From Bryobacteraceae bacterium (lineage in GTDB: Bacteria > Acidobacteriota > Terriglobia > Bryobacterales > Bryobacteraceae), in assembly GCA_044358225.1 (NCBI GenBank), contig JBIKOG010000008.1:15595-79594 (forward strand): a stretch of 64,000 bases of DNA, given 5' to 3'. The position numbers were made by a program, and so were the translations under genes. Shown piece after piece: positions 57,676 to 60,055 of the stretch. How positions within the stretch are numbered: position 1 is the stretch's first letter; the number at the start of each line of letters is the position of its first letter. Under the pieces are notes generated by a model, which was not told the origin of the DNA, did no database searches, and saw only the letters and a program-made list of their open reading frames with translations.

Positions 57676-58817
57676 CCCCCCGCCCGCCCAAACAACACCG
57701 CCGCCAACACCGCCACCCCCACCAATACCCCCAACACCTCCCCATACCCGCCCGCCCAAGCCAACAGCAACGAAGCCAAAAACGGCGCCCCCGCCCGCGC
57801 CAGCGTCGCCGGCGCCGCCAACGCCCCGCTCACCTGCGCATACTGCTCCCGCCCAAACAACTCAACAACAGCCACACTCCGCACGATCGTCATAATCCCG
57901 TTCGCCATCCCATACACCCCGATCGCCAGCAACAACACCCCCACCGGCACAGGCCGCAGCATCAACAAAATAAGCGCCGGCACGAACGCCGCCAGCGACA
58001 ACACCCCCGTCCGCCGCGCGCTCCAATTCGCCCCATACCGGAACTCAATCAGCCGCCCCACCACCTGCATCGGCCCCGCCACCGCCGCCATCCACGCCGC
58101 ATGCTGCAACGTCGCCCCCTTGGCCTGCAACAACGGCACCAGATGCACCGACACCACCGAAAACACCGTCGCGTACATCGTCAAACTCCCCGCCAGTAAC
58201 AGGAACCGCCGCTCCCGCACCAGCCCCGAAATCCGCACCGGCGCCTGCGCCACCGCCCCCACCACTGCCGGCAACCCAAACCAGTGCAACGGCAAACAAA
58301 CCAGCAGATGCAATAAAGCGTAAACCACCAACGTCCCCTGCCACCCCGCCCACACCACCATCCGCTCCGTCAGCGGCCAAAACACCGTGCTCGCAAACCC
58401 GCCCGCGAACGTCACGAACGTCACCGCCCGCTTATAATCCCCCGCATAAATCCCCGCCAGCGCCGCAAAGGCAGGCTCATACAACGTGCCCGCCATCGCC
58501 AGCCCAGCCAACGCCCAACCCGCATAAAACCCCAACAAAGTAGGCGAAAACGCCACCACCAGCATCGCCCCCGGCCCCACCACGGACCCCACGCTCATCA
58601 CCACCCGCCCCCCAAACCGCTGCATCAATTTCCCCGCCGGATACGCGCAAATCCCACTCACCAACAGGGCCACCGAAAACGCCCCCACCATCTCCGCCAC
58701 GCCCCATCCATGCCCGGCGCCAATCGCGCCGAGCAACACCGAAAAGGCGTAATAAAGCGTGCCCCAGCTCAACACCTGCGTCACGCACAACACCCACACC
58801 GGCAGCCAGTAGCTCAT
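57651..58817 (-). CDS. MFS transporter (last gene of the arsR operon; ArsK/ArsJ-like role possible)
   Basis: 12-TM MFS layout. ATG 58817 lies in an ATGA overlap with the flavoprotein stop. The 3' end overlaps mrr convergently by 25 nt. Confidence 0.75.
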   Translation of the reverse strand: MSYWLPVWVLCVTQVLSWGTLYYAFSVLLGAIGAGHGWGVAEMVGAFSVALLVSGICAYPAGKLMQRFGGRVVMSVGSVVGPGAMLVVAFSPTLLGFYAGWALAGLAMAGTLYEPAFAALAGIYAGDYKRAVTFVTFAGGFASTVFWPLTERMVVWAGWQGTLVVYALLHLLVCLPLHWFGLPAVVGAVAQAPVRISGLVRERRFLLLAGSLTMYATVFSVVSVHLVPLLQAKGATLQHAAWMAAVAGPMQVVGRLIEFRYGANWSARRTGVLSLAAFVPALILLMLRPVPVGVLLLAIGVYGMANGIMTIVRSVAVVELFGREQYAQVSGALAAPATLARAGAPFLASLLLAWAGGYGEVLGVLVGVAVLAAVLFGRAGGQADSSSK

Positions 58818-60055
58818 CCGCAACAAGCCCCCGCCGGCTGCCCGCAGCACCCACCCGTCGGCTTCACCTCACAACACGGCTCCCCCTTCGGCGCAAACCC
58901 GCAAACGCCCGTCTCCGGCAACTCCAACTCCACCGCGTCCGCCGCCGCCAAATCCCCCGCCAGCGCCGCCGTAATGGACCGCACCTGCTCATACCCCGTC
59001 GCCAGCAAAAACGTCGGCGCCCACCCGTAGCTCTTCACGCCCGCCGTATAAAACCCCGGCTCCGGATGCGATAACTCCCGATGCCCATGCGGCCGCACCG
59101 TCCCGCAACTATGCACGCTCGGATCAATCAGCGGTCCCAACGCCGCCACCGAATCCAACCCCGGATACAACCCCAGCCGCAGCCCCGTCGTCATCGTCAA
59201 ATCCGGCCGCTGCCCCGTCGCGCAAATAATCTCGTCAATCCCCTCAATCCGCCGCCCGCCGCCGGAAACCGTCAACGTCTCCCCCACGCGTTCCACCCGC
59301 TCCACCACGAAGTCCGTAACCAGCTGCAACCCGCCCATCCGCGCCTTCTCCCGCAGCATCGTCCCCAGCTCTCCCCGGGCAGGCAGAGCATCTTTCACCC
59401 CACCCCCAAACACCCGCCGCGGCTCACCACCCCGCACCGCCCAAACAACATCCCCCGTCAGCGCCAACAAGCTATTCGCCGCCGAATGCCCAGCCCCCAC
59501 CACCAAAACTCTCCGCCCCCAATACCGCTCCCGCAAAGCCCCCGCCACATCCGGAATCCCATAGAAAATCCGGTCGGCGTTCTCCCGTTCACCCGCCGCC
59601 CCCAACCCATTCGGCGTCCCCCAAGTCCCCGTCGCGTCAATCACAAAACGCCCCCGCATCTCCCCGCCGGCAAACCGCGCCACAAACCCCATCCCCTCCC
59701 GCGCCACCGCCGTCACCCGCGCCCCAAAAACAATCCGCCCCGCCATCTCCGGCACCGCCGCCAGCGGCTCCAAATACCGCGTCACCATCTCCCCCGCCGT
59801 CGGCAAGCCATCCGCCTCCGGAGCCTTCCACCCTTGCGCCGTCAACAGCGCCGCCGAAGCCCTGTCAACGTTGTACCGCCACGGCGAAAACAGCCGCACA
59901 TGCGCATACTCCCGCATGCTCCCGGCCACCGCCATACCAGCCTCCAGCACAATCGGGGAAAGCCCCCGCGCCAGCGCATGCGCCGCCGCCGCCAGCCCCA
60001 CCGGGCCCGCGCCCAGAATCAAAACATCAGCTTGAGAAAACGTTGGAATATTCAT
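58814..60055 (-). CDS. FAD/NAD(P)-binding oxidoreductase (flavin monooxygenase / ArsO-like) with Cys-rich C-terminal tail
   Basis: ATG 60055. 'DVLILGAGPVGLAAA' and 'VLVVGAGHSAANSL' dinucleotide motifs. Tail 'GVCGFAPKGEPCCEVKPTGGCCGQPAGACCG'. Confidence 0.75.
   Translation of the reverse strand: MNIPTFSQADVLILGAGPVGLAAAAHALARGLSPIVLEAGMAVAGSMREYAHVRLFSPWRYNVDRASAALLTAQGWKAPEADGLPTAGEMVTRYLEPLAAVPEMAGRIVFGARVTAVAREGMGFVARFAGGEMRGRFVIDATGTWGTPNGLGAAGERENADRIFYGIPDVAGALRERYWGRRVLVVGAGHSAANSLLALTGDVVWAVRGGEPRRVFGGGVKDALPARGELGTMLREKARMGGLQLVTDFVVERVERVGETLTVSGGGRRIEGIDEIICATGQRPDLTMTTGLRLGLYPGLDSVAALGPLIDPSVHSCGTVRPHGHRELSHPEPGFYTAGVKSYGWAPTFLLATGYEQVRSITAALAGDLAAADAVELELPETGVCGFAPKGEPCCEVKPTGGCCGQPAGACCG

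Follow-up and report, generated by a model that had tools for sequence, protein, structure and literature searches.

A probable short-form ArsV-type flavoprotein with a cysteine-rich tail in a compact ars island of a Bryobacteraceae bacterium

INTRODUCTION

ArsV is described, in a preprint (bioRxiv 10.1101/2021.08.12.456183) and in reviews, as an NADPH-dependent flavin monooxygenase that oxidizes methylarsenite (MAs(III)), trivalent roxarsone (Rox(III)) and antimonite (Sb(III)). The same preprint reports repression of arsV in Achromobacter sp. As-55 by the adjacently encoded MarR_ars, and a marR upstream of arsV in other species, Roseateles aquatilis being named; its Figure 1 lists the Rhizobacter sp. 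Root404 contig NZ_LMDS01000005.1 among marR-containing ars operons. Here we describe a flavoprotein gene with a cysteine-rich C-terminal tail in an ars island within a 64,000-nucleotide stretch of Bryobacteraceae DNA (assembly GCA_044358225.1, contig JBIKOG010000008.1, positions 15,595 to 79,594), hereafter the window. The gene is most likely a further, divergent and trimmed member of a known but poorly annotated enzyme family; we put at roughly 0.65 the probability that it is a short-form arsV whose disordered tail serves as a thiol arm delivering arsenic or antimony for flavin-dependent oxidation.

RESULTS

A two-Rossmann flavoprotein outside the curated families

The open reading frame (ORF) at 58814-60055 on the minus strand encodes a two-Rossmann flavoprotein of 413 amino acids, beginning MNIPTFSQADVLILGAGPVGLAAA. 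An alternative, longer start is a TTG at 60097; the ATG at 60055 is the start in the close homologs P0001 and P0002, metagenomic relatives 95% and 87% identical to the window protein, respectively. Pfam returned Pyr_redox_3 (E 3e–18) and both dinucleotide-binding motifs were found, in agreement with the original prediction of a two-dinucleotide-fold flavoprotein; an ATGQRPD motif was also invariant in the family alignment. NCBIfam matches fell below their curated cut-offs: ArsO_flavin_mono (NF040505) came first at 54.2 bits against 425, over the N-terminal half only, followed by YpdA (TIGR04018) at 47 bits against 340, while TRX_reduct reached 29 bits against 343. No dedicated family model was returned from the Pfam or NCBIfam libraries searched, and family members carry no annotation more specific than 'FAD-dependent oxidoreductase' or 'NAD(P)-binding protein'.

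The solved structures nearest in sequence were the Stenotrophomonas small flavin monooxygenase (FMO) SMFMO (4a9w/4c5o, E about 1e–6) and then proteins resembling thioredoxin reductase (TrxR). An AlphaFold2 model based on an alignment of 34 sequences had a mean predicted local distance difference test score (pLDDT) of 74.7, and its nearest folds were Bdr/YpdA (7a76, Foldseek E 2.6e–19), TrxR-like ferredoxin-NADP reductase, low-Mr TrxR and small bacterial FMOs. The sub-cut-off scores and these fold matches together place the protein in the TrxR/FMO-like two-dinucleotide-binding superfamily, outside all its curated families. Specific memberships within that superfamily were rejected as follows: a TrxR or class-I disulfide reductase, because the core lacks a CxxC or CxxxxC redox-active disulfide (its only cysteines are C278 and C317) and the TRX_reduct score is so low; a canonical FMO, because the identifying motif is missing and homology to SMFMO is remote; and Bdr/YpdA, because the YpdA score leaves a similarity of fold only.

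Within the core, Cys317 sits in an HSCGTVRPHG loop and is a candidate active-site or metalloid-binding cysteine. The motif was seen in 77 of 150 representatives at 50% identity, many of the remainder being fragments, and the loop was modelled with low pLDDT.

The cysteine-rich tail

The final 31 residues, GVCGFAPKGEPCCEVKPTGGCCGQPAGACCG, carry the three CC pairs attributed to them by the original prediction and are encoded exactly at 58817-58909. Cysteine makes up 7 of these 31 residues against 2 of the 382 core residues, for which the binomial probability is 2.5e–10 at the core frequency and 2e–8 at a frequency of 1%. Across the whole 8.46-Mb genome only two of the 22,165 stop-to-stop frames of at least 150 amino acids had three CC pairs in their last 40 residues: the window gene, and an Arg-rich frame with low GC content at third codon positions that is probably non-coding. 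The tail is predicted to be disordered (pLDDT 31–37).

A word-indexed search gave at least 8000 scored relatives (clusters at 90% identity), and the best 120 were used for tail statistics; apart from P0001 and P0002, these are 53–61% identical to the window protein. In all 120 the conserved anchor at the core boundary is followed by a low-complexity, Ala/Gly/Pro/Ser-rich tail, of 9–109 residues (median 55) and with 3–11 cysteines (median 7), such that Cys density is 13% in tails and 0.6% in cores. One CC pair was counted in 24 tails, two in 64, three in 30 and four in 2, and 61 tails end in CCG. In the smallest tails only a linker separates the anchor Cys from the terminal CC, and the tail of the window protein is among the shortest of the family. 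P0001 and P0002 keep all of its tail cysteines, with variation at the intervening positions. A six-Cys unit, GCCGGPAPxxxDACCxxDAxxKxxGxxGCGCG, was present in 19 of the 120 homologs (L048–L050, P0028, P0033, P0065, P0096 and P0097 are among its carriers); the window tail, with its three CC pairs, is simpler. More broadly, at least one CC pair occurred in 50 of 60 tail-scorable representatives at 50% identity, most exceptions looking like frameshifted or truncated metagenomic fragments.

The original prediction named as refuting evidence the absence of the tail from orthologs in ars contexts; on the contrary, the tail is present in all 120 close homologs and in eight of eight plasmid orthologs. 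Both traits, tail and ars linkage, are so nearly universal that no co-variation can be read from them, and the sole locus lacking ars markers (L036) still encodes a Cys-rich tail. We also considered selenocysteine read-through, which would produce a TrxR-like C-U-G end, and rejected it, as a Cys-TGA-Gly-stop pattern was found in none of the 38 loci described below.

Family size and genome context

When 1.84 billion representatives at 50% identity were searched exhaustively, 433 clusters reached E ≤ 1e–30. The window protein belongs with its close relatives to a trimmed clade, whose 90% identity cluster has 21 members from several metagenome sources. An N-terminal fusion to an ArsN2 acetyltransferase was found in about half of the homologs among the 120 listed (e.g., P0031, P0039 and P0044).

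To survey gene neighborhoods, 43 loci were fetched from named genomes, and markers were counted within 8 kb in the 38 that had a callable family member, a sample biased towards Burkholderiales. At least one ars marker was present in 37 of the 38. ArsR (29 loci) and low-molecular-weight-phosphatase-type ArsC (27) were followed by an ArsK-like major facilitator superfamily (MFS) gene directly downstream (17, the junction tight or overlapping), a major intrinsic protein (MIP) channel (15), MarR directly upstream (14), ArsH (11) and ArsA (8). Among 98 co-directional upstream genes, the leading NCBIfam families were ArsC, MIP, ArsH, ArsI and Acr3. The ArsN2 fusion was found at 27 of the 38 loci and is very common in Sphaerotilaceae, where the Prokaryotic Genome Annotation Pipeline (PGAP) labels entire fusion proteins 'ArsN2'.

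Distant members on annotated plasmids of Shinella, Streptomyces, Staphylococcus, Bacillus, Rhodococcus and Kocuria each adjoin arsR. With X for the family member, the arrangements are arsC-arsC-acr3-...-arsR-X-MFS in Shinella; ArsR, an ArsO-like gene, X and MFS on Streptomyces pFRL3, with an annotated ArsO separately nearby; arsR-X-...-arsN1 on a Bacillus cereus plasmid; arsR, then X-MFS, on a Rhodococcus PR4 plasmid; and arsR, then X-acr3-arsC, in Kocuria. All plasmid members have a Cys-bearing tail after the anchor, with at least one CC pair in all except Staphylococcus. That member is carried by SAP008A (NC_013371.1), a mobilizable 10-kb plasmid of Staphylococcus sp. 693-2 from poultry litter (L051), which combines arsR and the ArsV-like gene with only a small hypothetical ORF overlapping the ArsV-like start, replication and mobilization genes and a reverse-transcriptase/SLATT pair. 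This cargo fits selection for Rox(III) detoxification, roxarsone being a poultry feed additive.

Connection to ArsV

Two Ensifer adhaerens plasmids, p-3 of strain E-60 and pD of strain M8 (NZ_CP084489.1 and NZ_CP098811.1; loci L049 and L050), carry within an aio/ars island an arsR gene, a gene for a 471-amino-acid family member and arsK (a PGAP equivalog call), with overlapping stop and start codons. Aligned over its full length, the E-60 p-3 protein shares 46% identity with the window protein (E 1e–123), along with the anchor; its tail, too, is rich in CC. ArsV is reported from E. adhaerens ST2, with the genes ordered arsRVK as on these plasmids, from Paracoccus sp. SY and from Achromobacter sp. 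As-55; neither E-60 nor M8 is strain ST2. A second line of evidence comes from the Root404 contig itself, where our locus L019 reads arsR-arsC-MIP-arsC-arsH-marR-[ArsN2::X fusion]-MFS-GNAT, where marR and X share 10 nt; another 13 loci, most of them in Roseateles and Pelomonas, have the same marR-X junction. The fusion is encoded at L019:7524-9401, and its ArsN2 domain scores 138 bits against a cut-off of 125. The Ensifer arsR-X-arsK arrangement and the marR-X pair on the Root404 contig tie the family indirectly to the ArsV name, and judging from sequence and gene order we consider it highly probable that the window family and the published ArsV family are the same. The flavin-dependent oxidation of trivalent (methyl)arsenicals put forward in the original prediction agrees with the literature on ArsV, the most likely family of this protein, although that prediction did not mention ArsV by name.

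Several observations weigh against reading the window gene as an active short-form arsV with a metalloid-capturing tail. The window protein is missing some 35 residues common in the family, among them a 'DKVKTxGRE' insert in which D, K, K and R are nearly invariant, so that activity of the trimmed form is an assumption on our part. The canonical class-B FMO motif FxGxxxHxxxY/F is absent, the local sequence before the second Rossmann motif being IFYGIPDVAGALRERYW; the best structural matches are disulfide reductases, not monooxygenases; and the conserved segment 281–319 was poorly modelled by AlphaFold2. The tail of the Staphylococcus member has three single cysteines and no CC pair, so that vicinal pairs are not strictly required. 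As to the name, no entry in the 90% identity clusters of the Ensifer, Shinella and window proteins is called ArsV, and a second methylarsenite oxidase, ArsZ, is known from the same strain as ArsV (E. adhaerens ST2).

Proposed mechanism and alternative explanations

We propose that arsR-sigZ-arsV-MFS would be transcribed as one unit, with translation of the enzyme coupled to that of the ArsK-like exporter; since the two genes are so coupled, oxidation and efflux of trivalent organoarsenicals would be co-expressed. NADPH would reduce the flavin, and O2-dependent oxygenation, as in the chemistry given in the ArsV literature, would turn R-As(III) or Sb(III) into pentavalent products, far less toxic than the highly toxic trivalent methylarsenite, roxarsone(III) or antimonite. 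Capture of arsenicals by the tail, which the original prediction likened to the metalloid sites of ArsD and ArsR, is plausible, and we infer that the tail serves as a thiol arm: the disordered, Ala/Gly/Pro-rich segment running from Cys385, with its three vicinal Cys pairs, could act as a 'fishing line' that holds soft trivalent As or Sb in di- or tri-thiolate form and passes the metalloid on to Cys317 and Cys385, which would make up a site close to the flavin. A reduced flavin–O2 adduct would then transfer oxygen, and the As(V) or Sb(V) so formed, binding thiols poorly, would be released. That the tail is a covalent substrate-capture arm feeding a flavin-oxygenating site around Cys317/Cys385 is a tentative proposal, to which we give slightly less than even odds. 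We know of no demonstration of chaperone-style metal delivery fused to a flavin monooxygenase; if the proposal is true, the capture arm would account for enzyme action on substrates that are sub-micromolar and thiol-reactive.

An ArsV-type oxidase might instead use its tail as a protective metalloid buffer or sink for the enzyme, as an As-responsive switch of activity, or as a docking or hand-off element for the MFS exporter. The disorder of the tail and its wide variation in length and Cys number would suit a binding sponge, the ArsK-like exporter is tightly coupled in the 17 loci noted above, and vicinal Cys sites occur also in the ArsR, ArsD and sigma factor of the island. Yet the anchor Cys and terminal CC are near-universal, kept even in tails of 9–20 residues, which suggests one specific site rather than bulk capacity, and many members have no MFS neighbor; we hold these roles to be unlikely. 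A larger departure, which we judge quite improbable, would make the protein a thiol-based reductase that passes electrons from NAD(P)H through the flavin to Cys317/Cys385 and on to the terminal CC, with disulfides, As-thiol adducts or pentavalent organoarsenicals as substrates. This would explain why the closest solved folds are Bdr/YpdA and TrxRs, why the usual CCG end resembles the C-terminal redox motif of TrxR, why two cysteines are invariant in the core region and why the canonical FMO motif is absent. It is at odds with a core that has no redox-active disulfide, with literature reporting oxidation rather than reduction by ArsV, and with linkers of up to 109 low-complexity residues, unlike the short ordered tail of TrxR; moreover, such an activity would make more trivalent arsenical and so increase toxicity.

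The original prediction had also mentioned ArsO, the flavin monooxygenase of a Streptomyces arsRBOCT cluster, and this connection did not hold up. ArsO_flavin_mono is the top NCBIfam match and both proteins are ars-linked flavoproteins, but the match covers only the N-terminal half at a score far from the cut-off, and pFRL3 encodes, besides its annotated ArsO and a 353-amino-acid ArsO-like protein (260 bits), a separate 454-amino-acid family member (48 bits). Score and co-occurrence together exclude ArsO membership, and an ArsO-type enzyme here is very unlikely indeed. Still harder to credit is a tail that is a chance extension or annotation artefact without function, for although it is low-complexity, GC-rich and highly variable in length, all 120 homologs keep it irrespective of phylum, and Cys is about 20-fold enriched in it over the core; it is essentially unique in the genome, and its cysteines are retained in the 95% and 87% identical relatives while the spacers vary.

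The ars island of the window

The minus-strand order is arsR, a SigZ-like extracytoplasmic function (ECF) sigma factor gene, the flavoprotein gene and the MFS transporter gene (Table 1). As had been predicted, the flavoprotein gene is coupled to the transporter gene through an ATGA overlap in an ars operon, which arsR heads: the junction reads TGT TGC GGA TGA, and the ATG of the MFS gene (MSYWLP...) lies within GGATGA. The transporter was rejected as an ArsK equivalog on its score, and is best called ArsK-like; the MFS partners in Shinella, Rhizobacter and Solibacter are likewise ArsK-like (204–246 bits against the same cut-off of 400). The closest operon-level match to the window is Ca. Solibacter (L007).

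Table 1. Features of the flavoprotein gene and the surrounding ars island (window coordinates)
Feature	Position	Strand	Evidence
ArsV-like flavoprotein gene, 413 amino acids + stop	58814..60055	-	ORF and translation; Pfam Pyr_redox_3; Ensifer homology
GAGPVG, first dinucleotide-binding motif (FAD), residues 15–20	59996..60013	-	G15, G17, P18, G20 invariant (alignment A2)
GAGHSA, second dinucleotide-binding motif (NAD(P)H), residues 187–192	59480..59497	-	G187, G189, H190, S191, A192 invariant
HSCGTVRPHG loop with Cys317	59084..59113	-	H315, S316, C317, G318, V320, R321, P322, H323, G324 invariant, n = 34 sequences
LPETGVC anchor (Cys385), boundary of folded core and tail	58901..58921	-	L379, P380, T382, G383, C385 invariant; P.TG[VI]C in 120/120 homologs
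Cys-rich C-terminal tail, 31 amino acids, 7 Cys (anchor Cys + three CC pairs), CCG end	58817..58909	-	Sequence, disorder prediction, family statistics
ATGA stop/start overlap with downstream MFS gene	58814..58817	-	Sequence TGTTGCGGATGAGCT
ArsR/SmtB repressor, first gene of arsR-sigZ-arsV-MFS unit	60618..60950	-	NCBIfam HTH_metalloreg 73 bits, cut-off 55
SigZ-like ECF sigma factor with 4-Cys C-terminal motif, between arsR and flavoprotein gene	60104..60628	-	NCBIfam SigZ 146–148 bits, below cut-offs
ArsK-like MFS transporter, 388 amino acids	57651..58817	-	NCBIfam MFS_ArsK (NF033733) 196 bits full length, cut-off 400
ArsM::ArsD fusion, divergent, probable true start near 61000	60949..62157	+	Arsenite methyltransferase 355 bits; ArsD 114 bits
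ArsA pump-driving ATPase, estimated start	about 62148..63833	+	TIGR04291 752 bits, cut-off 650

The divergent ArsM::ArsD fusion ORF terminates ...SSGPTSCC, with ArsA directly downstream. No ArsB, Acr3 or ArsC adjoins the ars island of the window. On one side a convergent Mrr-type restriction endonuclease gene (56767-57675, Mrr_cat E 1e–38) overlaps the 3' end of the MFS gene at 57651-57675, and this overlap is the edge of the island. Past the other end of the window the contig continues with a sulfotransferase-like gene, an aminotransferase and a metallohydrolase, all unrelated to ars, so that the island is compact.

The sigma factor gene recurs in the same position and with the same invariant Cys motif in Nitrospira (L004:2079-2678) and Ca. 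Solibacter (L007:5491-6093), with further sigma loci at L059, L060 and L065. Its C-terminal motif is ACC-x(19)-C-x(4)-C, the four cysteines being invariant in the ars-linked Nitrospira and Ca. Solibacter copies (55–57% identity). Across 200 genomes from the phylum of the window, even the best matches were at most 46% identical, a difference that suggests horizontal movement of the sigma module; an ArsM-like methyltransferase lay within 1.5 kb of 3 of the 11 same-phylum sigma loci. CorE is an ECF sigma factor with a Cys-rich domain, and by analogy the window sigma factor may sense As(III) or MAs(III) directly. No anti-sigma gene was evident beside it. Its start either overlaps the arsR stop or comes right after it, the start codon (TTG or GTG) being uncertain, and in alignment A3 it is about 22 residues shorter at the N terminus than its L004 and L007 relatives.

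DISCUSSION

The window result is mostly an ordinary one, a divergent, trimmed family member in a compact ars island. ArsV-type enzymes matter because of their substrates: they detoxify methylarsenite, a natural arsenic antibiotic, trivalent roxarsone, derived from a poultry drug, and antimonite. Given the generic annotation and the fact that no dedicated model was returned, surveys of arsenic genes probably undercount this very large family; a 2026 metatranscriptome study reports a single arsV gene. Annotation would be improved by adopting the anchor, Cys tail and HSCG loop as family signatures.

Among known systems, the Ensifer arsR/arsK-flanked protein, most likely ArsV, is the closest, sharing the two-Rossmann core, HSCG loop, LPETGVC anchor and Cys-rich tail, as well as the gene order, with arsR upstream and an ArsK-like gene downstream; the MarR_ars association also fits. 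The window protein differs in its length of 413 amino acids, against about 450–470, with several insert segments missing, in a tail of the shortest class with three CC pairs where Ensifer has a CC...CC...CGCG unit, in the SigZ-like gene that separates arsR from the enzyme gene, and in an MFS partner that is only ArsK-like. ArsO (NF040505, of the Streptomyces arsRBOCT cluster) belongs to the same superfamily and is an ars-linked NAD(P)H flavoprotein with similar N-terminal FAD/NADPH motifs, but it is of a different family, about 346–353 amino acids long, with no HSCG loop, anchor or Cys tail. Bdr/YpdA (7a76, 7apr) is the closest solved fold, though at about 21% identity and without the C-terminal extension of some 100 residues, the HSCG loop or the Cys tail.

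Other resemblances are of function or chemistry. ArsH, an NADPH:FMN oxidoreductase that co-occurs at 11 of the 38 loci, is reported to achieve the same net detoxification of trivalent to pentavalent organoarsenicals, but has an unrelated fold (FMN_red, PF03358) and no Cys tail. In ArsD, vicinal Cys pairs ligate trivalent metalloids, and the island itself encodes an ArsD domain that has them; the fold of ArsD, however, is an unrelated, thioredoxin-like one, and its As(III) is passed on to ArsA, while the Cys pairs of the window protein are attached to an enzyme. The C-terminal Cys pair of MerA and the GCUG/GCCG end of high-Mr TrxR are mobile pairs that carry a soft metal or substrate to the flavin site, MerA passing on Hg(II). 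The likeness to these proteins, a mobile vicinal Cys element at the C terminus of a flavoprotein, is a working analogy only and not a claim of membership: they are class-I disulfide oxidoreductases with a CxxxxC motif and short tails that catalyze reduction, while the window protein has no CxxxxC and a long disordered linker, and the reaction proposed for it is an oxidation. The role of the tail is the point of real mechanistic interest, and the capture-arm hypothesis is experimentally addressable.

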